Origin: Nitrosopumilus sp.
Lineage (GTDB): Archaea; Thermoproteota; Nitrososphaeria; Nitrososphaerales; Nitrosopumilaceae
Direction of reading: 5' to 3'
DNA length: 64,000 bases
Assembly (NCBI GenBank): GCA_965197525.1
Contig: OZ240211.1
Coordinates: forward strand, 1,344,001 to 1,408,000
The notes under the pieces are model-generated. The model saw only the letters and a list, made by a program, of their open reading frames with translations. It was not told the DNA's origin and ran no database searches. Position numbers and translations under genes: made by a program. Positions 2,965 to 60,865 of this stretch are shown one piece after another. How positions within the stretch are numbered: the stretch's first letter is position 1; each line of letters opens with the position of its first letter.

Positions 2965-3537
2965 CTAAGTCCGTGATCCATCTAGGCTCTTTCTAGGCTT
3001 TATGCTTAGGTAAAATGCATGTGCACTAATAATAAAGGCCGCAAGAAACACCTTAGTTGCAAAGACTAGGTTCCACGGTCTATCTGGATCTGGATAAGCT
3101 ACTGACAATTTATCAATATCTGGAACCACCCCATTAACTATCCCTGCAGTTATCTGTGCGTTTAATACTGTAAAATTGTACAACACTTCATAGAAGGTTA
3201 TGATTGTAAATCCCAACAACATTAGTTGTAGTAGTGCCATTCTTGTGCCTACAATCTTATCCCCAGCTGTTCGTCTCCATCCAATTCTAGAGCAACAGTA
3301 CCATCCAATTATAGTTGAAAAAAATATCCAAGTAGAGACTCTAGCAAAATTTTCAAACGGAATAGTTGTATTGTGAATTGCTTCTCCCATCACATAAGTT
3401 CCATTTTCTAACCACTCCATTGTAGTTACGTAAACCCCAAAGATTAGCGATGAGGCCATTATAATCCCACTGACGTAAAAAATATACAAATAAACCCTGT
3501 AACTTGGATCTGTTCTTTCAAGGTGTCGAGGTTTCAT
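2965..3537 (-). CDS. Conserved membrane protein
   Basis: 190-aa ORF with about 4 hydrophobic segments. Confidence 0.7.
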   Translation of the reverse strand: MKPRHLERTDPSYRVYLYIFYVSGIIMASSLIFGVYVTTMEWLENGTYVMGEAIHNTTIPFENFARVSTWIFFSTIIGWYCCSRIGWRRTAGDKIVGTRMALLQLMLLGFTIITFYEVLYNFTVLNAQITAGIVNGVVPDIDKLSVAYPDPDRPWNLVFATKVFLAAFIISAHAFYLSIKPRKSLDGSRT

Positions 3538-3755
3538 AATGCCGTTTTCTTAATTTTGAATTATAAAAATTCATGCTTCTATGACGATGACGATTATGCG
3601 TACATACTCTCACTAGAGAGTAAGTATCTATTGAAAGTTATAATTGATACACCTCCCAGAGGTAATAGAAGAAAGAGGATTACAACAATTCTACCTCATT
3701 TAGGTCAATTACTCTACAACGCCAACTTTATTGCCACAACCGTTCATGATGTATC

Positions 3756-4244
3756 ATGAATATTATCGGTGAAGCGATTGGAGAACTTTGTAAGACCATC
3801 TTGCCCATCCCAGAAGAGTATTATTTCGGAGATCATACCTCATCGATAGCGGTATGTACACTCTCAAGTATTAGTTTATTACGTGATCTTTCAAACTCTA
3901 AAATCTTAAACAGTATCTCAGTTGTTGGAAGATTACTTTCTGAAAATAAAGGAATTGATGGGATTATAAAACACCTATACAAGAATCAGCAAATAACGAC
4001 TATGATAGTTTGTGGCAAAGAAGTCTGGGGACACAAAGCAGGCCACTCTTTATTGGAACTACATAAAAATGGAATAAATCAAAACAAGAGAATCATTAAC
4101 TCATCTAGCCCTGATCCATTTATTACTGCATCTGCCTCTGAAATAAAACACTTTCACGATCATATCACTTTGATAAATCTGATTGACGAGACCAATCCAA
4201 ATATGATAGTCAGAGAGATTCAACGAATACTATTACAGCGCTAA
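3756..4244 (+). CDS. MtrA-like (tetrahydromethanopterin S-methyltransferase subunit A-like) cobamide-binding domain protein
   Basis: IAVCTLSS, VVGRLLSENKGIDGII, IVCGKEVWGHKAGHSL, RIINSSSPDPFI resemble the MtrA domain, including the His position. Confidence 0.75.
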   Translation: MNIIGEAIGELCKTILPIPEEYYFGDHTSSIAVCTLSSISLLRDLSNSKILNSISVVGRLLSENKGIDGIIKHLYKNQQITTMIVCGKEVWGHKAGHSLLELHKNGINQNKRIINSSSPDPFITASASEIKHFHDHITLINLIDETNPNMIVREIQRILLQR

Positions 4245-4600
4245 TACCCATTCTTCTGTCTATCTATGTTTATTTGATTCTTTTTTCTATATTCTGCAAC
4301 AATATCTTCTGGATTGAGATTCAACTCTATTGATGCCTGAACGACAAAATGCCAGATATCAATTAACTCTTCTTTGGCTTCTGCCTCATTGAATTTAACT
4401 GGATTCTTCCACCACTTCCAATTTGTCAGTCTTTGCAATTCAACTGCTTCATGAATAATTGCAGTACATAATGCAGAAACCTTCTCTTCTGTATCTTTGG
4501 GATACCTATCTGATTTGATGACGTTCGCTAGATTCTTTTGAAGTTTGAATATTGTATCTAGCGTATCACCACTGTTTTTTGTATCTAATGACAACGACAA
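4241..4600 (-). CDS. All-alpha (dimeric/MazG-like) dUTPase
   Basis: IIHEAVEL...WKWWK...EELIDIWHF...EYRKKNQINIDRQKNGY. Confidence 0.85.
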   Translation of the reverse strand: MSLSLDTKNSGDTLDTIFKLQKNLANVIKSDRYPKDTEEKVSALCTAIIHEAVELQRLTNWKWWKNPVKFNEAEAKEELIDIWHFVVQASIELNLNPEDIVAEYRKKNQINIDRQKNGY

Positions 4601-4630
4601 GTTTTTGTCAGATACCAGTCTTAAATCTTT

Positions 4631-5533
4631 TTAGAAATGCATCATATCTTCATATATTTTACATCGGTTCTCGATATCACCATCTTTAATACCTAACAAC
4701 CCATCCAAACCATACCCTCCAACTGCAAAAGATCCCATAACATTCCCATAAGTTATCGCTTTTTTAATATCTGAAAAACTTGTCGTGTTCTTTCCTGCCA
4801 GATAACCAATCATTGCGCCTGCAAAAGAGTCACCTGCACCTGTTGGGTCTAATACATCTTCTAGCGGGAACCCAGGCATTGGAAATACTGTATCTTGATA
4901 AAACATTAGAGAGCCATGTTCTCCTTTTTTAATAATTATGTATTTTACTCCCCATTCCATCATCTTTTTTGCACATTTAATCAAGTTAAACTCTTTTGTA
5001 AGCAATCTTGCTTCCTCATCATTAATTACTACCCCGTCAACTGATTGGATCATCTTAATTACCGCATCACGTTTTGTGGATATCCAAAAATCTATCGTGT
5101 CACACATTGAAAATTTTATTTTATCAAATTGCTCTAATACCAAAACATTCTGCTCTGGATCATTATTTGCAAGATATACAAATTTAGATTTTCTATAGTC
5201 GTTAGGTACACTGGGCCTAAAATCTGTCAAGACATTTAGTTCGGTGCTCAACATAGTCCTAACACCTAATGTCTCGTCATATTTACCATCATAATGGAAG
5301 GTTTTACCTTTTTTTATGGTTAAGCCCTGTAAATCAAGGCGTTCTGATAGGATTCTATGATATTTTTCTGGAAGATCATCTCCTGCTACTGCAATCAATC
5401 CGGTATCCACAAAATTACTTGCCGAGATTGCAGCAAATGTCGCAGCACCCCCTAAAACATTCTCTAGAGTTCTTTTTGGTGTTCTGATGGTATCTGATGC
5501 TACAGAGCCGAAGACAGACAGCATAAGACACAA
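4631..5533 (-). CDS. PfkB/ribokinase-family carbohydrate kinase
   Basis: LGGAATFAA, INDEEARLL, KKGEHG, DPTGAGDSFAGA. Confidence 0.9.
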   Translation of the reverse strand: MCLMLSVFGSVASDTIRTPKRTLENVLGGAATFAAISASNFVDTGLIAVAGDDLPEKYHRILSERLDLQGLTIKKGKTFHYDGKYDETLGVRTMLSTELNVLTDFRPSVPNDYRKSKFVYLANNDPEQNVLVLEQFDKIKFSMCDTIDFWISTKRDAVIKMIQSVDGVVINDEEARLLTKEFNLIKCAKKMMEWGVKYIIIKKGEHGSLMFYQDTVFPMPGFPLEDVLDPTGAGDSFAGAMIGYLAGKNTTSFSDIKKAITYGNVMGSFAVGGYGLDGLLGIKDGDIENRCKIYEDMMHF

Positions 5534-5536
5534 AAA

Positions 5537-5989
5537 TTAATTTTGATGTATAAATTTACTTGTCTGTTCGTTTGTTGGATAGAATACAAATGGAATGTCA
5601 ATAGATGCAACAAACACATCATATCTTGTCTCACCTGTAATCTTTATCTTTCCTGTGTCATCTCTAGTCTCAATGTCTTTATGAAACGTGCCTTTAACAT
5701 TTGTACTATCCAGCGGATTTAAAACAAATGGTTCTAATTGACCCATTCCTATTATCTCATCATCAGAGATTATCGAGAATTGAGTCTCACCTGCTGTCAA
5801 CAGTAATAATGTAGGATTTTCAAATTTTAACTCTATATTATAATCCAAACCATTCTCATCTTCATTAAATAACTGACTTTCTACGATGTTAGTTTTTATC
5901 TGTGATATGGATGTGTATTGTACGTACCCAAAGGCAATGATACCTAATACGATTAAGAATACAATTGCTCCCTTTTTCGCAGATCCCAT
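5537..5989 (-). CDS. Membrane-anchored LEA-like hypothetical protein
   Basis: N-terminal TM helix followed by a beta-rich FENPT...GET domain. Confidence 0.55.
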   Translation of the reverse strand: MGSAKKGAIVFLIVLGIIAFGYVQYTSISQIKTNIVESQLFNEDENGLDYNIELKFENPTLLLLTAGETQFSIISDDEIIGMGQLEPFVLNPLDSTNVKGTFHKDIETRDDTGKIKITGETRYDVFVASIDIPFVFYPTNEQTSKFIHQN

Positions 5990-10989: not shown

Positions 10990-11721
10990 CTATTTTTTAC
11001 CATTCTCTTTGAACAAAGCGACTAATCTTGGTAATGATGATGCCCCGGTCTCTCTTATACTCAAGTCCATGTTAGGTGACATCTCTGTACTAGACGGATT
11101 GATCTCTATTATTACTGCATTATTTCTTCTTGCATAGTTTGGAAGTGTATTTGCCGGTGATACTACAAGTGATGTTCCTACAACTATCATAAGATCACAC
11201 TGACTTGCAAAATCTATAGCTCTTTCCCATGTATCCTGCGGCAGACCTTCTCCGAACCACACCACATCTGGTCTAAGCATATTGCCACACTTGCAGATGG
11301 GTAAACTATCGTTGTATTCTGTTAGTACTCTATCTTTAAAATCACATACGGTACATCTGATCTTTATGATACTTCCATGCAGTTCTTGCACATTTGAACT
11401 GCCAGCTCTCTGATGCAGTTCATCAACGTTCTGTGTCAAGACTGCAACTTGGACATACTCTTCCAACTCTGCAATTGCCTTGTGACCTTGATTTGGCAGC
11501 GCTTGCAAAATATTTTTTCTTCTGTCATTGTACCACTCCCAAACTAATTTTGGATCCTCATAAAATGCATCTATGCTTGCTAGTCGCATTGCATCGTGAT
11601 TTCTCCATAATCCGTCTTTACCTCTGAATGTGGGTATTCCGCTCTCTTGTGATATTCCTGCCCCTGTCACAAAGGCAATTTTTTTGATCTCATTAATTCG
11701 TGTCTTGATTAGATCAAACAT
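10990..11721 (-). CDS. cobB: NAD-dependent protein deacylase (sirtuin)
   Basis: TGAGISQESGIPTFRG, TQNVDELHQRAG, ELHGS, CTVC/CKC Zn site, RPDVVWFGE, GTSLVVSPA. Confidence 0.95.
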   Translation of the reverse strand: MFDLIKTRINEIKKIAFVTGAGISQESGIPTFRGKDGLWRNHDAMRLASIDAFYEDPKLVWEWYNDRRKNILQALPNQGHKAIAELEEYVQVAVLTQNVDELHQRAGSSNVQELHGSIIKIRCTVCDFKDRVLTEYNDSLPICKCGNMLRPDVVWFGEGLPQDTWERAIDFASQCDLMIVVGTSLVVSPANTLPNYARRNNAVIIEINPSSTEMSPNMDLSIRETGASSLPRLVALFKENGKK

Positions 11722-11722
11722 C

Positions 11723-12622
11723 TCATTTAATCTCCACCTCTAATAGATCTTTTGCAGTTATCACACAATCAAATATTTTTTTTGCCTCCTCCAAATGCCT
11801 TGTTTCATCTTTGTACCTTGCTGAAAAATGTGTTAAAATTAGATTTTTTACATTTGCATTTTTTCCCAAAACAGCTGCTTGGCTTGCAGTTGAATGCTGC
11901 GTATCTATTGCCTTTTGCTCTTCATCATCTAGGAATGTAGCATCAAACACAAGATAATCACATCGCTGAAAAAATTTTTCTAATTTCTTTGTAGGCGCTG
12001 TATCACCGGAAATTCCTATCTTTTTCCCTGCTCTACTTGGACCTAGTACCTGTTCTGGCCTTATTACCTTTGTATCAACGACAACTCTCTGTCCGTTCTG
12101 TAATTTGCTCCATAATTGGCCTTTTGGTACTTTTAACTCGTGTGCTTTTTCTGCATTGAATCTTCCAGGTCTATCTTTCTCTTTGAACAAATATGAAAAT
12201 GCTGTAACTGAATGATCTGCCTGGCACACCTCTATTGAAAATTTTTCATCCTCAAAAATAATACCCTCTTTAACAACGGTAATTGGTGCATCAAACGATG
12301 ATCTAAAACCCAGGATCTTTATACTATTATCAATGAATTCCTTTATCCCCTTTGGTCCAAAAATCTCTAATGTCTTTGTCCTCTTTTGCATAGACATTGT
12401 TTGTAATAATCCTAAAACTCCTATACAATGGTCACCATGTAAATGGGTAACAAATAATTTCATCTTTTTATTCCAGCCTAGCCCTGATCTCATATATGCC
12501 ATTTGTGTGGCCTCTCCTGCATCAAACATCAAGATCTCCCCATCTCTCTCTAAACAAACACATGATAATCCTCTATCTTCGGTGGGTTGAGATGCTGACG
12601 TACCTAAAAACACAAGTTTCAT
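11723..12622 (-). CDS. rnz: Ribonuclease Z
   Basis: FLGTSASQPT, THLHGDH, SGDTAP, HSTASQAA, LTHFSARY. Confidence 0.95.
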   Translation of the reverse strand: MKLVFLGTSASQPTEDRGLSCVCLERDGEILMFDAGEATQMAYMRSGLGWNKKMKLFVTHLHGDHCIGVLGLLQTMSMQKRTKTLEIFGPKGIKEFIDNSIKILGFRSSFDAPITVVKEGIIFEDEKFSIEVCQADHSVTAFSYLFKEKDRPGRFNAEKAHELKVPKGQLWSKLQNGQRVVVDTKVIRPEQVLGPSRAGKKIGISGDTAPTKKLEKFFQRCDYLVFDATFLDDEEQKAIDTQHSTASQAAVLGKNANVKNLILTHFSARYKDETRHLEEAKKIFDCVITAKDLLEVEIK

Positions 12623-12831
12623 TTCATTATGATTATTCTAATCAGGCTTTTATGCCTATAGATTCAATCAATCTAAAAAATTAAGATTTGGACAACGCTG
12701 ATCCAATATTCTTAATATCATGAAACCAAAACTGCCCTAACTGCAACAACTGCTAATGATTGGAGTGTAAAACATGCCAATTACAAGTAAAATCATTTAA
12801 CACAGCATTATTTTACGAAACAATACTAGTA

Positions 12832-43945: not shown

Positions 43946-45007
43946 CTACTCTTCTTCCTCTATAATTAACTTTGACATTGTAATATCAGTTGCAATCTTT
44001 TGTTCTACTGCAAAAGCAATAGCTGCTAGATTCCTAATCTCAAATGATGTTAGTTTTGTGATGCCAACAATTGTTGCAAAGCTAAACATCTTTGTAAATG
44101 ATCTAATAGATGTACGGTATATTGACATCTCAAATGCGCGTTCAAATTCTGCAATGGCATCTAGCTCATTTTCAGATTGCGGAACAAGATCTTTGTATTT
44201 TGTACCTGCTATCTCATTGAACGCATCTCTGACAGTACCTACTGCCATTATTCTTGACAATAGTTCTTTTGCAGGAGGGCTAGTAGGTATTATTAGATCT
44301 TCTATCTGTTCATCTTGCAGCCCCCAGAACTTTCCTCTTATTACACTTAGAATATTGTAAAAATCAATATCCATAGCCACTATTTTTACTGCTTCCTTGT
44401 CAGAATAATTTTTCATTGCCGATGCTAGCTGCCGAAACAATATCTTGTCAAAATACGTATCCAGAATTTGCAAGTTCTTTCTCTCGTTGTACAACGCTGC
44501 AGCCTTTGCTATCTCATCTGCAAACTGTGCTGAATTTAAACTTGCAACTGCCTCTTCAAAATCTTTTGCAACTAATGCCTTGACTACGATATCTCTTTGC
44601 TTAATCAACTCTTCGGCATGAAGGTTTATGTGAGATTCAATCTCCTCTTGTGATTTTCCCAATATCTTCCCTTTTAGGATTAGTTTCAGATTAGAGATAA
44701 TAAATTTCATATAATATGCATCCAAAACCCCTGAACTACCTGATGTTTTTGCAATGGAGTAATGAATATCTGCTAGTTTACTTCTGAGTGCTGCTTCAAT
44801 ATTTTGTGAAGTGTATGGTTTTTGTACATTTGCTACTGCATCACTATATATGGTATTTTTTATTCTAGTCAACAACTCCTCCAAATCTCTTGCTTCAGCA
44901 AGCGTCTGAAAATCAGATTTTGTTAGTAATTTACCTCTTTTACTATATGCTTTTACAGAGGCATAGACATTTTTTGAACCACCCATAATAGCCAAGTCTT
45001 TTGCCAA
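43946..45007 (-). CDS. atpC: A/V-type ATP synthase subunit C
   Basis: YASVKAYSKRGKLL...; ATP synthase AC39-like fold, FEIRNLAAI; lies near the atp cluster. Confidence 0.88.
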   Translation of the reverse strand: MAKDLAIMGGSKNVYASVKAYSKRGKLLTKSDFQTLAEARDLEELLTRIKNTIYSDAVANVQKPYTSQNIEAALRSKLADIHYSIAKTSGSSGVLDAYYMKFIISNLKLILKGKILGKSQEEIESHINLHAEELIKQRDIVVKALVAKDFEEAVASLNSAQFADEIAKAAALYNERKNLQILDTYFDKILFRQLASAMKNYSDKEAVKIVAMDIDFYNILSVIRGKFWGLQDEQIEDLIIPTSPPAKELLSRIMAVGTVRDAFNEIAGTKYKDLVPQSENELDAIAEFERAFEMSIYRTSIRSFTKMFSFATIVGITKLTSFEIRNLAAIAFAVEQKIATDITMSKLIIEEEE

Positions 45008-48407: not shown

Positions 48408-50510
48408 CTATTTGCTTTTTTTCCAAACAAATTGATTGTAAATCAATTCTGGTCTAATCTGTCTGAATGGTTGCGAACCACCTACATACCACTTTGTAAA
48501 GAACTCATACAAGTGCAACCTGAGAGATTGAATGTACACAATTAATCCCTCTATCATCATTATTCCTAGATTGCCCCCAATAATCATGGCTATTGCAGCG
48601 CCGGATTCAATACCTCCTAAAGATGTAAATGCATTATTTACAGTCAACAATAACGCCGCATGCACCAACAACATAATCCCTATTCGCGCATAACTAATGG
48701 TGTGAGCTAAACTCTCAACGGTTTTTCCTAATAACACCTCCATGACGACACTTGCCGGATCTCCTCCGTCCTCTGGATGCTTTTTTGCATGCATTATTCC
48801 ACCAACCATCATGATTACCATTGATGCAATTACAATAACTACCGCAATTCTTGTAACAATCCAAACTTGTGCCCAATCCCCTAGGAACATTGTCACCCAA
48901 GGAACAGCCTCTGTGTGTGCTCTAGAGTACATGTTTATTACATCATATTGGGAACCGATAGCGCACATCATAATGACAACGATTCCGCCGTATAGTGCAA
49001 CATTTGGAATAGCCTCTGTAAATACAACCAACTTGTGTCCTTCTTTTAACAATCTAATTATCCGCAACATCATAGCCCAAAGCAGATGCACAATCCCTAT
49101 GAATAGTGAAACTTTGAGGATATCAATGACTTGATCAAATGTTAGTTCAGCGACGCTCAACACTCCTACTATCCAACTAATCGAGTGCAACGCTCCTCCT
49201 TCCTCTAACAGTCCTTCAAATGGTGTCAAATGATCAAGGTGATACCCAAACGCTTCTCCTGCACCCACACCTGCAATAGCAGCCGACGCTCCAGAAATTG
49301 CAATTAGCATTCCCCATCTAGATAGCTCTCCTTGTCCTTTAAACTTGAATAGCAAACCTAATCCCATAAGCAGTAATCCATGACCCATATCTGCAAACAT
49401 TAATCCATAAAAGATTGGCCACATCAAAGCAATCATTGGGGTTGGATCTGGCTCTCCGGCCTTTGGTATTCCCTGACTCTTCGTAATGACCTCAAAAGTT
49501 TTAATGAATCTTTTATTATCAAACAATGTTGGAGTAGTCGCTTTGAGTTTTGGATCAGTTATATCTTCTACTACTGACATCCATTGCTTTGTCGATTCCG
49601 TAAATTTTGCTTCCATCTTTTCTGGAATAAATCCTTGAATTACTGCAAAGTTTTTTGTTCCACCTGGTTTTCTCAAAGTTTCAAGTACATCTTTTGCAAT
49701 AAGGGCTTTTTCATGGATGGATAAAATGTCCCTTCTATTCTTTTTTGTTAGCCCAGCTAGCTCTTTTTTTACGGCTACTTGTTTTGCAGTAAGTTCTTTT
49801 ATCTTTGTTTCTGCAAGAGTATATGCTTCACTAGGAATTTGAGGAAAACCCTCTGGAATCTTAAATGTATGCGTATTGAAACTTCTTAAAATTTTCAGAA
49901 TCTTTTCGGCATCACTACTAGGTACAATTACAAGAATCGCTGCCTTGTCCTTATTCTCTAAATCATATTTGTAAATTGTGGCATCCTCAAGTGAACGATT
50001 TATCTCATCATAATCACTTGAGTTAATTACAAAGATATTTACAAAGAATTGCCTCATTAAACCGAATCCAGACAAATCCATATTCATCTTTCTAATTATT
50101 TGTAATGTCTCTCTAAGCGAATTGAACTCTTCGATGGCAAGTCTAGTGTTTGCCGCATCTTCTAAAAGTTTTGCCGGTCTCTCAATAATTCTAGGAGCTT
50201 CTTCACTTAACTCTTTGACCATCTCTTCTATTTCATCCATCTCGTAGTCTTTCTTCTTGATTACGGTTCCTTTGAATAAAATCTCCATTATTCCTACAGT
50301 CGCAGGAATCCCCATTCCTTTGACTATATCATCAACTGACTGAAAAGTTTGTTGTGCCTTTAAGAGCAGATCATCAATTTCAGGTGTCACTCGATCACCT
50401 TCGGCGTCAATCTTATGATACCATTCAAATTCCGTTAATCTAGAAATTGCTCTAGGTGACTCACTTCTCGGTAATATCACAGTTCCTAGTTTCAAATCAG
50501 CGGTTCCCAA
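48408..50510 (-). CDS. atpI: A/V-type ATP synthase subunit I (a)
   Basis: PDPTP, FYGLMFADMGHG, ISYARI, LRLHLYEFFTK. Confidence 0.93.
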   Translation of the reverse strand: MGTADLKLGTVILPRSESPRAISRLTEFEWYHKIDAEGDRVTPEIDDLLLKAQQTFQSVDDIVKGMGIPATVGIMEILFKGTVIKKKDYEMDEIEEMVKELSEEAPRIIERPAKLLEDAANTRLAIEEFNSLRETLQIIRKMNMDLSGFGLMRQFFVNIFVINSSDYDEINRSLEDATIYKYDLENKDKAAILVIVPSSDAEKILKILRSFNTHTFKIPEGFPQIPSEAYTLAETKIKELTAKQVAVKKELAGLTKKNRRDILSIHEKALIAKDVLETLRKPGGTKNFAVIQGFIPEKMEAKFTESTKQWMSVVEDITDPKLKATTPTLFDNKRFIKTFEVITKSQGIPKAGEPDPTPMIALMWPIFYGLMFADMGHGLLLMGLGLLFKFKGQGELSRWGMLIAISGASAAIAGVGAGEAFGYHLDHLTPFEGLLEEGGALHSISWIVGVLSVAELTFDQVIDILKVSLFIGIVHLLWAMMLRIIRLLKEGHKLVVFTEAIPNVALYGGIVVIMMCAIGSQYDVINMYSRAHTEAVPWVTMFLGDWAQVWIVTRIAVVIVIASMVIMMVGGIMHAKKHPEDGGDPASVVMEVLLGKTVESLAHTISYARIGIMLLVHAALLLTVNNAFTSLGGIESGAAIAMIIGGNLGIMMIEGLIVYIQSLRLHLYEFFTKWYVGGSQPFRQIRPELIYNQFVWKKSK

Positions 50511-50708
50511 GATAAATTTCTGGAATTTTATTCGTGTTTAATATCTTTCTGATTTATTTTTCGGTTCTGTTGCATTCACGAGTGGTATTATTAACAATAA
50601 CAATCACTCAGAACACTGGACTTTGACATATCGACTATCTGGATTACCGGTATACAGGGTTCCATCATCGCTGACTCAAAAACGTCAGACTGCGCTTCAC
50701 TTATGCCA

Positions 50709-50926
50709 ACTCTACTATCCCTAAACCTAGGATGTTTTGCCTCTTTTGTGTCTGGGTTATTACAGGTAGGGCACCTTCTGCCATCCCTCCATATTCTAGA
50801 TTCAAACCATTTCTCTGCTGTATCATTATCAGGAAACATCTTGAATAACTCCATCAAGGTAATACCTTTTCTAAATGATTTGCCTGGTGCTTGTGTGTCT
50901 TTCTTGTTTTTATTCATATATCTCAT
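50709..50926 (-). pseudogene. IS1595-family transposase, N-terminal fragment only
   Basis: GKSFRKGITLMELFKMFPDNDTAEKWFESRIWRDGRRCPTC matches the IS1595 Zn-ribbon N-terminus; no DDE domain follows. Confidence 0.8.
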
Positions 50927-51190
50927 ACTGATCTGACCTCTTGCCTGCCTTGCACTCGTGCATAAGACCTCTTTAAAATTAATATACCACAAAAAGAATC
51001 AAAAGATGGCTCAGAGCAAAGCCTATTCATCATGAATCGGCTTTCAGTCAATAGTTCTCCCAAACTAGAGCCTTTTCTTTTCATCATCGCCATTCTTTTC
51101 ATACATACTATACGTTTTAACTACATATATACTATATGTTTTGGCTATATATAGTAAACAATTATATAATGATTATAGCTATGTTTGTGT

Positions 51191-51334
51191 ATGAGCATGA
51201 AAGTCGATGGTGCATATTGGCGACACGAATGTAACAGGTGCAATGAGATTTGGTACAGCAGGAATGAATCTCCTAAGAATTGTAACAACAAGAAATGTAA
51301 TTCTCCATATTGGAACAAGGAACGTGTAAGGTGA
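51191..51334 (+). CDS. 47-aa zinc-ribbon microprotein (passenger)
   Basis: MSMKVDGAYWRHECNRCNEIWYSRNESPKNCNNKKCNSPYWNKERVR*; not in the ORF track. Confidence 0.65.
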   Translation: MSMKVDGAYWRHECNRCNEIWYSRNESPKNCNNKKCNSPYWNKERVR

Positions 51335-51448
51335 GACAACCCAAGGGTTTGATAGGTCAGGGAATTTGAGACTACCCAAGTATAGTTCAACATAAAAGTA
51401 AATTTTTATATTATTCACATTTATATTATATTTTAAAAACTACTTGAC

Positions 51449-51592
51449 ATGAGCGAGATTCTATCGCAAACACGACTGGTAAGCGAAGACGAAGTTAAGA
51501 AATTGAAGGAGGAATTTGTAAAACAAGACGATCTCATAAAAGGAGATTGTTTTTTGGATCTGCTAGACGAAATTGACAAGCATATCAATTAG
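51449..51592 (+). CDS. 47-aa acidic helical microprotein (passenger)
   Basis: MSEILSQTRLVSEDEVKKLKEEFVKQDDLIKGDCFLDLLDEIDKHIN*; AT-rich TATA-like region upstream. Confidence 0.45.
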   Translation: MSEILSQTRLVSEDEVKKLKEEFVKQDDLIKGDCFLDLLDEIDKHIN

Positions 51593-51827
51593 TGCATCCG
51601 ATGAACACGATTTGCGTAAAATAGGCATGAGAGTGTATTACTCTGCACATGTTCAAATGGATGAATTCTGGAATTACGTGATACAAAGAAAGGCAACCGA
51701 TTCAGGACACCTACAGTCGCAGGAACGCATATTTCAGATGAGAACCCTAAACAAATCTTTACGTATGATCTACGATCAATCAACCGATTCAATTTTTTGT
51801 AAACTTGTAACCTTGAATGATTTTTGA
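51573..51827 (+). CDS. Hypothetical passenger ORF
   Basis: 84-aa ORF overlapping the preceding micro-ORF; no recognised motif. Confidence 0.3.
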   Translation: MTSISISASDEHDLRKIGMRVYYSAHVQMDEFWNYVIQRKATDSGHLQSQERIFQMRTLNKSLRMIYDQSTDSIFCKLVTLNDF

Positions 51828-52051
51828 TTTTTCAACTACCATACTCAGCTTCAGATAATCCAACCGAATCCAAAACTTGATTTCAGCACCCGATAACTTC
51901 ACAGAACCAAGTATACCCATGTATATAATCCCCATAAATTACAAGGCTTGTTTTTAATAAAGGTGCTTTTTTTATTTATTTGGTTTTATTTTACCACTCG
52001 TGAATGCAACAGAGCCTATTTTTCCAAACATTAAAATTTATTATGACTTGA

Positions 52052-52660
52052 TTGCATTCATTGACATCTAATTTAGCACTGGAAAAGACGATTGACAACG
52101 TTTTGCTCAATACCGAAAAAAATATTCAGGCAAGCATCAAATCTGGTCTAGAGGACTCCCAACAAAGACTAGATGATTCTCTATTGATGCTAGATGCTGA
52201 ATACGATAAAATCTTGTTTGATGCTAAAAAAGAGGCTGACAAGCTTGAAAAACAGATAATTGGCGGCGCTGATATTAAGGCTAGAAATCAGCAACTAGTC
52301 CTGTTAGAACAAGCAGTTGATGGTGTATTTTCAAAAGCATTAGAACATATTACAAATATTGATAAAAGCGGTGACTATACAAATCTCATCAAGGCATTGA
52401 TAGTAGAGTCAACCCAAATCTTAGGAACTAACGAAGTTATTGTTTTTACAAATAGTAAAGACAGAAAAATAGTTGAATCTGTACTTTCAGAATTCCCAAC
52501 AGCAGTCCTGTCTTCTGACACATTTGACTGTCTGGGCGGCATTAAAGCCCACTCTAAGGATGGAACAATGACATTTGATAATACACTTGATGCAAGAATT
52601 CAACGTATGAAGCCTTTAATAAGGAAAGATATTGCAGCAAAATTCGGAGTGGGAAATTAA
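52052..52660 (+). CDS. atpE: A/V-type ATP synthase subunit E
   Basis: Coiled-coil N-terminus; LGGIKAHSKDGTMTFDNTLDARI. Confidence 0.88.
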   Translation: MHSLTSNLALEKTIDNVLLNTEKNIQASIKSGLEDSQQRLDDSLLMLDAEYDKILFDAKKEADKLEKQIIGGADIKARNQQLVLLEQAVDGVFSKALEHITNIDKSGDYTNLIKALIVESTQILGTNEVIVFTNSKDRKIVESVLSEFPTAVLSSDTFDCLGGIKAHSKDGTMTFDNTLDARIQRMKPLIRKDIAAKFGVGN

Positions 52661-52661
52661 A

Positions 52662-52943
52662 ATGGTAGCTACGAGTAGAATTGTTTGGATGAGTGCCGAT
52701 ACTTACTGCAGTCCAGAAAAACAATATGGATTATTAAAATCGCTAGTTGACTTTTACCACAAGGCGCAACAAACTCTTAGAGAAGGTAGATTATTATCTG
52801 ATATACGTACTCTGCCAATACTGACTAGTCTTCTTAAAACTAGAATTGATATTAAATATGACCAGATGCCAAAAATAGATCAATTAGATAAAAGTATGCA
52901 AACCCCATTCAAATCAATTACAGGAGTGAAAGTATCGAATTGA
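52662..52943 (+). pseudogene. atpA: ATP synthase subunit A reduced to an in-frame N-/C-terminal fusion (93 aa)
   Basis: Occupies the atpE-[A]-atpB slot; MVATSRIVWMS joined to DTYCSPEKQY...[11 protein letters not shown]; no Walker motifs; stop overlaps the atpB TTG start. Confidence 0.85.
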
Positions 52944-54325
52944 CAACAACAGGTGGAATCCAATACAGTAAGATTGCCGAGATCAAAGGTCCTCTAGTTG
53001 TGGTAGACGACGTTGAGAGTGCAGCATTTGATGAGTTAGTTGAGATTGAAACTACTGACGGCGAAAGAAGATTGGGTAAAGTCCTTGAAGTAGGAAATGG
53101 TAAAGCAGTTGTCCAAGTTTTTGAGGGAACAACTGGTTTGTCTATATCTGAAACCAATGCAAAGTTTGTAGGTAAAGTTATGGAGATGCCAGTATCAAAA
53201 GAGGTGCTAGGTAGAGTCTTTGATGGATTAGGTAGACCAAAAGACGGACTACCGGATCCAATTGCTGATAAATTTATTGACATTAATGGCGAACCTATGA
53301 ATCCTGAACAGCGTGAATATCCGAAAGACTTTATTCAAACCGGCGTCTCCGTCATTGACGGAATGATGACTCTGGTAAGGGGACAAAAACTTCCAATATT
53401 CTCAGGCTCAGGCATGTCTCACAATCTTCTGGCAGCACAAATTGCAAGACAGGCCAGTGTTCTTGGAACACAAGATGACTTTGCTGTAGTATTTGCAGCA
53501 ATAGGCGTGCAGTATAGTGAGGCAGAATATTTCAGACGAAGTTTAGAAGAGTCTGGAGCACTCAAAAGGAGTGTGCTATTTTTAAATACAGCAGACGATC
53601 CTGCAATTGAGAGGATTATTACTCCACGTGTAGCACTTACTGTAGCTGAGTACCTAGCTTTTGATTTAGGAATGCATGTTTTAGTTATTCTAACTGATAT
53701 GACAAACTATGCAGAGGCATTAAGGGAGATAAGTGCAGCACGAGAAGAGGTTCCTGGAAGAAAAGGATATCCAGGCTATCTTTACACTGATCTTTCAACA
53801 ATATATGAGCGAGCAGGTAAACTAAATGGAAGAGATGGAAGTGTTACCCAAGTTCCTATTCTATCCATGCCATCGGATGATATCACTCATCCGATACCTG
53901 ATCTGACAGGTTATATCACAGAAGGTCAAGTAGTACTAGGCAGAGATCTATTCAGACAAGGCATATATCCACCAATCAATATTTTGATGAGTCTTAGTAG
54001 GTTGATGAAAGATGGTATTGGTGAAGGCAGTACAAGAGCAGATCACGGCGAAATATCCAACCAAGTCTATGATGCGTATTCTCGATCACAAGAGGTGAAA
54101 GCATTAGCAGGTATTGTTGGAAAAGCAGGCCTAACTGACATTGATCTTAAATATATGGACGTAGGTGAGATCTTTGAAAAAGAGTTTCTTACACAAGCAA
54201 CTGATGAGAATAGAACTATTGAAGAGACACTGGCAATTCTATGGAAGATTGTATCAAAACTACCAAAAAGCGAGATTACAAAGATCAAAGACAAATTTAT
54301 TGATCAATACTACAAGGACGAATAA
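52940..54325 (+). CDS. atpB: A/V-type ATP synthase subunit B
   Basis: [54 protein letters not shown]. Confidence 0.96.
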
Positions 54326-54328
54326 ATA

Positions 54329-54961
54329 ATGTCATTTGGACAAAACGTTGCTGCGACAAAGATTGAACTGCTAAAATATAAAAAATCAACCCAAGTTGCA
54401 GTCATGGTTCAGAAAATTTTAGATGACAAACGGAAAATTCTTTTAAAAAATGTCGAAGAAATGATTACTGAAGCATCAAAAGCAAGAGGTGGGATTTGGG
54501 ATCCACTACAAGACATCTATACAGCAGTTAATGAAGCATATCTGGCACTTGGTACCAATACAGTTGATTCTGTTGCCGAATCAACTCCACCTGTGATGGA
54601 AGTAGATGTTTATATTAAACGTGTAGTTGACGTAAAAATTCCTGCACTCACAGTAACTGAAAAGGATACAAAATCAATGCCTTATGGATTTGCAGATACA
54701 AATTCTTCTATTGACAGAGCTGCCAAACAGATCAAAGAGCTACTTCCAAAAATCTGCAAAGCAGCCGAGTATGAAAATTCTATCTTTAGTCTTGCCAAAG
54801 CATTAGAAAAGACTCAAAAGTTGTTAAATGCACTTGAAAACGTAATTATTCCTCAATATAGCCAAAAAATTAGATTTATTTTAGCTACTCTTGAGGAGAG
54901 AGAGCGAGAAGAATTCGCAAAGTTAAAAAAAGTCAAAGCAAAGATGGAGAGTAGAAAGTAA
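54329..54961 (+). CDS. atpD: A/V-type ATP synthase subunit D
   Basis: ATKIEL, LNALENVIIP, LEEREREEFAKLKKVK. Confidence 0.93.
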   Translation: MSFGQNVAATKIELLKYKKSTQVAVMVQKILDDKRKILLKNVEEMITEASKARGGIWDPLQDIYTAVNEAYLALGTNTVDSVAESTPPVMEVDVYIKRVVDVKIPALTVTEKDTKSMPYGFADTNSSIDRAAKQIKELLPKICKAAEYENSIFSLAKALEKTQKLLNALENVIIPQYSQKIRFILATLEEREREEFAKLKKVKAKMESRK

Positions 54962-55092
54962 TGGCAAACAAAGAGATAAAAAAATTATTAAACAAATCTA
55001 AAAAGAAACTAGACGCTGACTACGATAATTTTGTCAAATCTATCGAGACTGATCTACAGTCGTTTAAAAAGACAACATTATCTCAGATCTAA
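54961..55092 (+). CDS. 43-aa helical microprotein within the atp operon
   Basis: MANKEIKKLLNKSKKKLDADYDNFVKSIETDLQSFKKTTLSQI*; ATG overlaps the atpD stop. Confidence 0.6.
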   Translation: MANKEIKKLLNKSKKKLDADYDNFVKSIETDLQSFKKTTLSQI

Positions 55093-55143: not shown

Positions 55144-55449
55144 ATGAAAACAATCGTCATGTTACTTTTGGCAGCATCAGTAATCTCAATTCTTGGTTCA
55201 ACTGGAATTGCATATGCCCAAGAGGACTCTGCATCTAGCGGTGACTCTATGAAACTTCTAGGAGCTGGTTTAGCATTTGGTATTGCAGCCGGCGGAGCAG
55301 GAATTGGTCTTGGTCAGGTAGGTGCAGCAGGACTTGCAGTTATTAGCGAGAATCCTGCATTACAGTCAAAGGTGTTTATCTTCGTAGGCATGGTTGAATC
55401 AATTGCCATCTACGGCATAGTCATGATGTTTATCATCTTGGGACAGTAG
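55144..55449 (+). CDS. atpK: A/V-type ATP synthase proteolipid subunit c (K)
   Basis: GAGIGLGQVGAAG...FVGMVESIAIYG with the ion-binding Glu. Confidence 0.93.
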   Translation: MKTIVMLLLAASVISILGSTGIAYAQEDSASSGDSMKLLGAGLAFGIAAGGAGIGLGQVGAAGLAVISENPALQSKVFIFVGMVESIAIYGIVMMFIILGQ

Positions 55450-59596: not shown

Positions 59597-60865
59597 ATGA
59601 ATCGCCAAACTAAACTTGCAGTTGCAGCAATCATGATTATAATTCCTCTAAGTATTGTAGGAGTTTATAGTACTAGTATTGATTCACCAACAATTGATGA
59701 GTCTAGTGATTCAAAATTAAAAGTTATTGCATCATTTGATCCACTTTATAGATTCTCAAAAATAGTTGGAGGTGATTTAGTTGATGTTACTTTACTTGTT
59801 CCAGTAGGCGTAGAGCCACATGATTGGGAACCAACAGTAAATGATGTAAGAGAAATAAATGCATCTGATCTAATAGTTATCAACGGCATAGGTTTTGAGA
59901 CCTGGGTTGATGATCTGTATATTAATAATTATCAAGGAAGAATAATTGATACTAGTATTGGTATTTTTAATGATGAAGAAAAAGGACACACTGATGAAGA
60001 AAGGCATGATGAAGAACATGAAGAGGGACACACTGATGAAGAAAGGCATGATGAAGAACATGAAGAGGGACACACTGATGAAGAAAGGCATGATGAAGAA
60101 CATGAAGAGGGACACACTGATGAAGAAAGGCATGATGAAGAACATGAAGAGGGACACACTGATGAAGAAAGGCATGATGAAGAACATGAAGAGGGACACA
60201 CTGATGAAGAAAGGCATGATGAAGAACATGAAGAGGGACACACTGATGAAGAAAGGCATGATGAAGAACATGAAGAGGGACACACTGATGAAGAAAGGCA
60301 TGATGAAGAACATGAAGAGGGACACGTACATGAATCAGGCGATCCTCATATTTGGTTAAATCCAGTTTATGCTAAAATTCAAATCCAAAATATTGCAGAT
60401 GCGTTCTCTGAATCTGATCCTCAAAATAGAGAATATTATCAGAAAAATGCTGTTGCCTATATCCAAAAACTCGATCAACTTGATTTACAAATTAGAGACG
60501 AGTTATCTGGTTGCAAAACTGATTTTATAGCTTTTCATAATGCATTCTCGTATTTTGCAAATGAGTATGGTCTTACACAACACACAATTGTTTCATCAAG
60601 TGGTTCTCATGGTGAGGTTACGGCCAAGACGCTACAAGATGTAATTTCTACTGCTAAATCATTAGATATCAAAATAATTTTCAGTGAAGAGAATGTATCT
60701 TCTAGAACATCTGAAATAATCGCAGATGAAATCGGAGGTGATGTATTGCTCTTATCACCGTTGGAGATAACTAATACCGAAGATGATAATGATGATGATG
60801 ATGCCGACTATATCTCTCGAATGACTACAAATCTTGAAAATCTAAGAGTAGCTCTATGTCAATAA
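59597..60865 (+). CDS. znuA: Zn/Mn ABC transporter substrate-binding protein with an expanded His/Glu loop
   Basis: EPHDWEP, DPHIWLNP, FHNAFSYF, IFSEE. Confidence 0.88.
   Translation: MNRQTKLAVAAIMIIIPLSIVGVYSTSIDSPTIDESSDSKLKVIASFDPLYRFSKIVGGDLVDVTLLVPVGVEPHDWEPTVNDVREINASDLIVINGIGFETWVDDLYINNYQGRIIDTSIGIFNDEEKGHTDEERHDEEHEEGHTDEERHDEEHEEGHTDEERHDEEHEEGHTDEERHDEEHEEGHTDEERHDEEHEEGHTDEERHDEEHEEGHTDEERHDEEHEEGHTDEERHDEEHEEGHVHESGDPHIWLNPVYAKIQIQNIADAFSESDPQNREYYQKNAVAYIQKLDQLDLQIRDELSGCKTDFIAFHNAFSYFANEYGLTQHTIVSSSGSHGEVTAKTLQDVISTAKSLDIKIIFSEENVSSRTSEIIADEIGGDVLLLSPLEITNTEDDNDDDDADYISRMTTNLENLRVALCQ
59984..60319. repeat. 8 x 42-bp perfect tandem repeat encoding GHTDEERHDEEHEE
   Basis: 336 bp, identical units at 42-bp spacing. 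Confidence 0.95.

Follow-up and report, generated by a model that had tools for sequence, protein, structure and literature searches.

The window, a stretch of 64,000 nucleotides taken from a Nitrosopumilus genome of 2.21 Mb (a single contig of 2,210,164 bp; the genome is called G000 below), carries an ATP synthase operon in which the place of atpA, between atpE and atpB, is occupied by an ORF of 93 codons. Three questions are raised by this locus: what the ORF is, where the catalytic A subunit is encoded, and why a remnant has stayed open and in frame. Coordinates are those of the window unless another sequence is named. The atpE-atpB interval contains the following features.

52662..52943, + strand: atpA remnant ORF (the stub), 93 codons plus TGA.
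52662..52694, + strand: remnant of atpA codons 1-11; aligns to AtpA 1-12, its DNA having been compared with the 5′ ends of relatives.
52695..52697, + strand: deletion junction codon GCC, codon 12, give or take one codon.
52698..52940, + strand: remnant of the last ~81 codons of operon atpA (tail of the C-terminal helical domain), assigned by identity to operon AtpA C-termini.
52940..52943, + strand: TTGA stop/start overlap between the stub TGA and the atpB TTG, read from the sequence.

The translation of the ORF (93 aa, followed by TGA) consists of AtpA residues 1-11 joined in frame to the last 82 residues of AtpA. The atpE stop (52658-60) and the stub ATG (52662) are separated by 1 nt; the stub TGA (52941-43) overlaps the atpB TTG (52940-42). 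This TTGA overlap was also found in the canonical operons inspected and in every stub allele. When the stub was compared by BLASTP with the genome's own full AtpA, residues 1-12 aligned to AtpA 1-12 and residues 13-86 to AtpA 513-586 (E=4e-15). Relative to the canonical 592-aa AtpA of the genus, ~499 codons are absent. Microhomology at the junction does not exceed 2 nt; the codon GCC differs by one mismatch from the GGC of canonical atpA on the 5′ side and likewise from the GTC on the 3′ side. The alignments clearly indicate that the relic lost its ~499 internal codons by one in-frame deletion.

Pfam profiles matched to the stub gave 0 families at E<=0.01; the stub is therefore devoid of Walker motifs. 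PF00006, PF02874, PF16886 and PF22919 are all missing, and the stub cannot be classed as an AtpA catalytic subunit. What remains of AtpA, its last ~82 residues, extends beyond the end of PF22919. The original prediction, made from the letters of the DNA, had described a 282-nt, 93-aa in-frame fusion between atpE and atpB that lacks Walker A/B motifs and results from an in-frame deletion of about 500 codons. Each of these points was recovered: the ORF coordinates and both overlaps were reproduced, the junction at codon 12 is single, and both halves match the termini of AtpA.

The catalytic subunit is encoded elsewhere. A complete atpA (591 aa; canonical, 592 aa) lies alone at G000:C1:187366-189141, 1.2 Mb from the operon. 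A search of the whole genome for PF00006 returned two genes only, atpB and this relocated atpA. The relocated AtpA carries PF02874, PF16886, PF00006 and PF22919, all above cut-off, and the P-loop GAFGTGKT. Its dN/dS relative to a 97%-identical homologue (P0004) is 0.037 over codons 1-450 and 0.075 from codon 451 onwards. Four domains, P-loop, full length and purifying selection identify it as a genuine AtpA. The A subunit of the cell is now encoded by this gene; there is one complete set of subunits and no second operon. The reading of an ATP synthase lacking its catalytic subunit is wrong. Among the outcomes envisaged beforehand, a full atpA elsewhere in the genome is the one that the PF00006 search revealed; replacement by a second operon, this one being newly dead, is contradicted by the presence of only two PF00006 genes and by purifying selection on atpB and atpE.

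The relocated atpA is flanked by a membrane-protein gene and a 188-aa gene. In G134 and G021, the same two genes are ~580 nt apart, without atpA. This comparison of flanks points firmly to insertion of the relocated atpA into an intergenic spacer. A TATA-like sequence, TTTAAATA, has its centre ~27 nt ahead of its ATG, a placement that would fit a leaderless archaeal promoter. Three TnpB-like genes (Cas12f1-like TNB domain), two of them nearly identical, are found within 11 kb around it. Their positions are given in L017 (G000:C1:178000-197999).

1628-2827: TnpB-like gene.
4391-5602: TnpB-like gene.
11607-12815: TnpB-like gene.

TnpB elements were considered as the vehicle of the relocation and rejected. 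In P0004, atpA occupies the same spot in the same context and the adjacent TnpB copy is lacking; the TnpB next to atpA was therefore inserted later.

The stub descends from the original operon copy, since it is nearer to operon AtpA than to the relocated copy: over its last 82 aa, identity is 60-70% with the operon AtpA C-termini of most compared congeners (54-58% in three), versus 32.5% with the resident relocated AtpA. The operon AtpA C-termini compared all end in GVKVSN or a near variant. The pace of change in the stub and in its neighbours was obtained by comparing G000 with L081, a contig from a JGI metagenome that encodes a 92-aa stub homologue (86% identical) with the identical junction.

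Stub: 13 non-synonymous and 2 synonymous changes; dN/dS 1.73.
atpB: 1 non-synonymous and 19 synonymous changes; dN/dS 0.01.
atpE: 4 non-synonymous and 6 synonymous changes; dN/dS 0.18.

The counts of non-synonymous and synonymous changes in the stub differ from those in its flanks (Fisher p=9e-6). No purifying selection on the stub protein was detected in this comparison (1.73 versus 0.01-0.18 for the flanking genes), and its amino-acid sequence is no longer constrained. The stub had been suspected to be more diverged than atpB, and these ratios bear this out. dN/dS between the stub and its canonical relatives was discarded as a measure: dS is saturated (0.7-1.4) and shows only a ~2-3x higher dN; the stub-versus-stub comparison is the informative one. 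The stub is homologous to atpA, has lost the essential parts, evolves neutrally and coexists with an intact copy elsewhere, as a pseudogene does. The stub is almost certainly a relic of atpA, the working gene being elsewhere.

The persistence of this relic as an ORF was addressed by comparison. The arrangement of atpA was searched in 151 congeneric species genomes. The normal order is atpE-atpA-atpB, with the TTGA overlap in the contexts inspected. The atpE-atpB interval of related lineages contains the following.

L086, L089 and G002: full atpA.
G018: 48-codon ORF, AtpA 1-41 plus MGVKVSN.
L088: 28-codon ORF.
L087: 7-codon ORF, M-GVNVSS.

With the 93 codons of G000, this makes four different deletion alleles. 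All four keep an ATG located 1-3 nt after the atpE stop, the frame, a terminal ...V(S/N)VS(N/S) and a TGA on the atpB TTG. Four in-frame outcomes would arise by chance with a probability of ~(1/3)^4 = 1.2%, a figure drawn from a small sample of alleles and read against a tree in which G018, L086, L087 and L088 form an unresolved polytomy. The alleles of G018, L087 and L088 may be nested derivatives; each step would still have kept the frame. The sole indel seen inside a stub is of 3 nt. Among possible substitutions in the stub, 5.7% would create a stop; the sole nonsense change observed (L081) lies two codons from the end and places the stop 2 nt before the TTG. A conserved GVKVSN tail is seen in every operon AtpA and in none of the solitary ones. 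It is therefore probably conserved for its position before atpB, in the atpB initiation region, and not for the function of AtpA.

Overlapping gene pairs of Haloferax volcanii and E. coli are translated by termination-reinitiation (PMC6728339, PMC10666635). Such coupling requires overlaps or very short spacing; a spacing of ~20 nt nearly abolishes reinitiation, for which the final 15 nt of the upstream gene are enough (same references). The spacing of a termination-reinitiation pair is found here (1-nt gap, TGA/TTG overlap), as it is in G018, L087 and L088. A mechanism can be proposed on this basis. With a weak TTG start placed on the upstream stop, atpB would depend on ribosomes terminating there; the relic ORF would persist in frame because of this need. 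Once atpA had become redundant, only deletions leaving a bounded mini-ORF would have been tolerated. Translation would be relayed from the atpE stop to the mini-ORF ATG and from the mini-ORF stop to the atpB TTG, and the coupling of E to B would thus be kept after the departure of atpA from the operon. Only the ATG of the mini-ORF and its last ~6 codons would be needed; the 82 C-terminal codons present here would be filler that has not yet been deleted. The four in-frame alleles, each with its start and stop, favour selection for such a relay. That the mini-ORF serves as a termination-reinitiation relay to atpB is fairly probable from these comparisons. Retention of the stub for coupling to atpB had already been suggested from the single sequence; the four alleles add comparative support. 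In all, the stub shows 15 changes in 273 nt, fewer than the flanking synonymous sites predict (dS 0.12-0.15), and the relay accounts for this slow overall change only partly.

The first alternative is a neutral leftover: the redundant operon atpA would have been partly deleted, the 282 nt would be junk, the frame coincidental and atpB self-initiating. A stub dN/dS of ~1.7 is what would be expected of junk, lengths of 7 to 93 codons across lineages fit progressive decay, and a single in-frame deletion has a prior of 1/3. A GGAG-containing stretch is located 13 nt upstream of the weak TTG of atpB in G000 (it is not conserved in G018) and might permit some independent initiation. This explanation is nevertheless rather unlikely. 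In all four alleles, and despite the internal indel, the frame is kept, the ATG adjoins the atpE stop and the stop falls on the atpB start, with a joint chance of ~1% or less. Even the most reduced allele, that of L087, has kept a complete ATG-plus-6-codon ORF with its start and stop. Stops could arise by 5.7% of substitutions, yet the sole nonsense change is at the extreme 3′ end.

A second alternative is that the stub works as a small protein, such as a regulator or assembly factor that stems from the C-terminal helices of AtpA and still docks on the A3B3 head or the stalk. In its favour, at least three diverged strains have the ORF intact, its co-transcription with atpE and atpB is probable, and a contiguous helical segment of the C-terminal domain is kept. 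Against this stand the 13:2 ratio of non-synonymous to synonymous changes between two strains (1:19 for atpB) and the location of substitutions at positions invariant across all canonical AtpAs. The equivalent ORF is moreover down to 48, 28 or 7 codons in related lineages, the common part being the first residues and the last six, and no Pfam domain is recognised in the stub. A regulatory or assembly peptide, which the original prediction had listed, is disfavoured by the dN/dS of 1.7 and is very unlikely.

The deletion itself is real. The atpE-stub-atpB segment is spanned by Logan contigs from two other runs, of two samples, with 0 differences. In a different organism (other study, ~4% diverged), a 5.2-kb contig spans the stub with 72 substitutions and 0 gaps. 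In those three runs, the normal continuation from atpE to atpA of co-occurring archaea is visible as loose ends. A scan of JGI metagenomes with the stub peptide gave no confirmed relative. Contigs from RNA libraries of a sponge metatranscriptome, at ~96% identity, run from atpE into the stub and from the stub into atpB; such contigs can contain DNA and say nothing about translation, and they are a weak hint that atpE, stub and atpB are co-transcribed. A real, older deletion had been favoured over a misassembly. It is common to diverged strains, the stub evolves faster than atpB, and the contigs from other runs pass from atpE through the stub to atpB without a full atpA. A collapsed assembly, or a second ATPase operon that has taken over from a dead one, is refuted and was given next to no credence: many MAG contigs of the genus end inside atpA and some congeners (G153, G158 and G070) have a second, presumably V-type operon, but the independent contigs from two samples, the gap-free ~4%-diverged organism and L081 all carry the same structure, the one-contig 2.21-Mb genome has just two alpha/beta-family genes and no second operon, and atpB, atpE and the solitary atpA are under purifying selection.

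Shortened atpA matches in MAGs (G119, G137, G061, G058, G108, G131, G105, G079, G042, G091, G103 and G124) were considered as partial deletions or two-copy genomes and rejected: all are canonical atpI-atpE-atpA operons cut by contig ends. G153, G158 and G070 encode a second atpA, 54-55% identical to the query and absent from G000; it presumably belongs to the V-type operon described for deep-sea lineages.

The relocated gene belongs to a distinct type of solitary atpA, recognised by the tail ...DKQFGTLK.... Among the 151 species genomes, this type was found in G000, G018 and G117 only; a larger protein collection holds about 25 further clusters. Every context of this type that was inspected is solitary, at least five different genomic contexts are represented, and several adjoin integrases or DDE transposases. 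None of the genomes sampled holds both an operon and a solitary atpA. Similarity among the flanks of the G000, G018 and G117 solitary loci ends at the coding sequence, and neither a cassette boundary nor a mechanism of insertion was definable from these three.

The solitary genes are mosaic. Sliding windows place a breakpoint near codon 445, and from codon ~450 onwards the solitary genes have a strongly divergent C-terminal domain in common. In the tree of the 3′ part, all seven solitary genes form one clade (100/100) with a stem of 0.71 subs/site; a constraint that unites G018 and P0014 with their species relatives is rejected for this part (p=0.0004). In the tree of the 5′ part, G018 and P0014 fall within their own species group, beside the operon atpA of L086, and a single clade of solitary genes is rejected (AU p=1e-82). 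Over its first 123 nt, the G018 stub matches the solitary gene of G018 at 118/123 positions, versus 110/123 for the G002 operon gene. The 5′ parts of G018 and P0014 differ by a dS of 0.12, their 3′ parts by a dS of 0.77. In trees of the operon genes, G000 groups with G104 and G134, and G018 with G002, L086 and L089; species with intact operons are interleaved.

Since the 5′ three-quarters of the solitary genes of the G018 lineage match the lineage's own operon copies, the solitary genes are recombinant. The trees indicate a divergent 3′ module common to host lineages and, in the G018 lineage, a 5′ part that tracks the host. Two origins would fit these data: the solitary gene may have spread horizontally and then undergone gene conversion by the resident copy, or it may be an old paralogue whose 5′ part was kept similar by concerted evolution. 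A wider scenario may be entertained, tentatively: a variant atpA with the divergent C-terminal domain would have spread between Nitrosopumilus lineages as a solitary gene, often beside integrases or transposases, recombined and repeatedly displaced the operon copy, selection keeping each time a minimal relay mini-ORF that couples atpB to atpE.

Two of the host genomes deserve separate mention. The region of the G018 solitary atpA (L016, G018:C1:1254000-1272000) has an unusual composition. It contains a TraG/VirD4-like ATPase, an MCM P-loop fragment, a DDE transposase and proline/arginine-rich tandem repeats (about 4500-5400), and looks like an integrated mobile element. In G117, atpB, atpI and atpE are absent from the assembly, and the operon may have been broken up further. 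On L092 (G117:C80), a coiled-coil/zinc-finger transposase-like ORF (3409-3840) is located at the contig end, just past atpK.

The remainder of the operon of G000 and its surroundings are as follows.

43985..44947, - strand (extent of the Pfam match): atpC (subunit C/d), PF01992, E=6.8e-59; open frame of 355 aa without stops.
48408..50510, - strand: atpI, 700 aa, divergent from atpE; PF01496.
50563..52016, no strand assigned: ~1.45-kb insertion between atpI and atpE, an IS-like cassette delimited by spacer comparison.
52052..52660, + strand: atpE, 202 aa; PF01991, E=2e-16; dN/dS as given above (L081).
52940..54325, + strand: atpB, 461 aa, intact; PF00006, PF22919 and PF02874; dN/dS as given above (L081).
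54329..54961, + strand: atpD, 210 aa; PF01813, E=1.8e-50.
54961..55092, + strand: conserved 43-aa ORF overlapping the atpD stop by 1 nt; same place in relatives, no Pfam match.
55144..55449, + strand: atpK (c subunit), 101 aa; PF00137.

The prediction that atpI, E, B, D, K and C are intact holds: all six have Pfam matches, atpI, E, B, D and K are full length, and the atpC frame has no stops. atpC lies inside the window, 3.5 kb past atpI; atpF is 565 kb away from the operon. Along its whole length, AtpI is 86% identical to the AtpI of G134 and G104.

The canonical operon of neutrophilic Nitrosopumilus (atpI / atpE-A-B-D-K) and that of G000 have I, E, B, D, the 43-aa ORF and K in common, down to their order, orientation and start/stop overlaps, and G000 keeps atpC and atpF outside the core cluster. 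They differ in that the atpA slot of G000 holds a 93-codon relic and the working atpA is solitary, with a divergent C-terminal domain. Wang et al. 2019 (PMC6863869) describe vertical inheritance of the A-type operon in neutrophilic ammonia-oxidising archaea; the searched text of that paper does not mention a solitary atpA arrangement. Literature searches found no description of this arrangement.

The systems of Huber et al. 2019/2023 (PMC6728339, PMC10666635) also consist of co-directional genes of a heteromeric complex, and resemble the present one in the 4-nt overlap (here TTGA) and the 1-3-nt spacers. The 3′ segment retained here is of at least 18 nt, 15 nt having been shown to be sufficient in those systems. 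Unlike in those systems, the upstream "gene" is here a decaying relic in which only start, frame and stop are conserved, the start codon is TTG and not ATG or GTG, and coupling is proposed from sequence comparison.

The locus also shares with ordinary relocation or displacement pseudogenes an intact paralogue elsewhere, loss of the catalytic domains and relaxed selection on the remnant. Pseudogene remnants are normally frameshifted or randomly truncated; the four alleles found here keep an open, correctly bounded ORF. The displacing gene also departs from ordinary displacement in being a mosaic, its 3′ quarter being common to several host lineages. Gene relocation, relics and translational coupling are each known; their combination here is new, namely a recombinant solitary catalytic subunit displacing the operon copy in at least two host lineages together with a replicated series of frame-preserving relics.

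This has consequences for annotation. From the operon alone, the organism would be annotated as an ATP-synthase-deficient ammonia oxidiser, or the 93-aa ORF as "subunit A"; the homologue P0003 is indeed called "subunit A" by the JGI pipeline. In several lineages, a recombinant solitary variant can take the place of the core catalytic subunit of an A-type ATPase that is supposedly inherited vertically, and the picture of strict operon co-inheritance is thereby qualified. The remnants of 93, 48, 28 and 7 codons form a natural deletion series, suggesting that nothing matters beyond the ATG, the frame and the last ~6 codons. This series makes translational coupling testable in a phylum without genetics. 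If both the spreading variant and the kept relay are true, they would provide natural, replicated evidence of termination-reinitiation coupling as a selected trait in Nitrososphaerota.

Some other features of the operon were recorded. The atpI-atpE spacer measures 1541 nt in G000 versus ~85-120 nt in relatives. The insertion responsible contains an ORF of 133 aa (50591-50992, - strand) with a weak match to an IS1595 Zn-ribbon; its C-terminus resembles that of the TnpB-like genes near the relocated atpA. The promoters of atpI and atpE may have been disturbed by the 1.45-kb insertion. The AtpE of G000 has only 66% identity with those of its closest relatives, among which identity is 85%; those of G018 and G002 are likewise divergent (51-60% identical to others). 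The peripheral stalk may have co-evolved with the altered A subunit, or AtpE may simply evolve fast.

The 43-aa ORF, which is lysine-rich, was found at the same position in G018 by an ORF scan and is a called gene in L087 and L088. It is a candidate for the missing peripheral-stalk partner (H/G), because no homologue of subunit H/G is known in neutrophilic ammonia-oxidising archaea, according to Wang et al. 2019 (PMC6863869). Farther downstream, a ZnuA-like gene (59597-60865) contains eight identical 14-residue His/Glu-rich repeats at 59984-60331 of the window.
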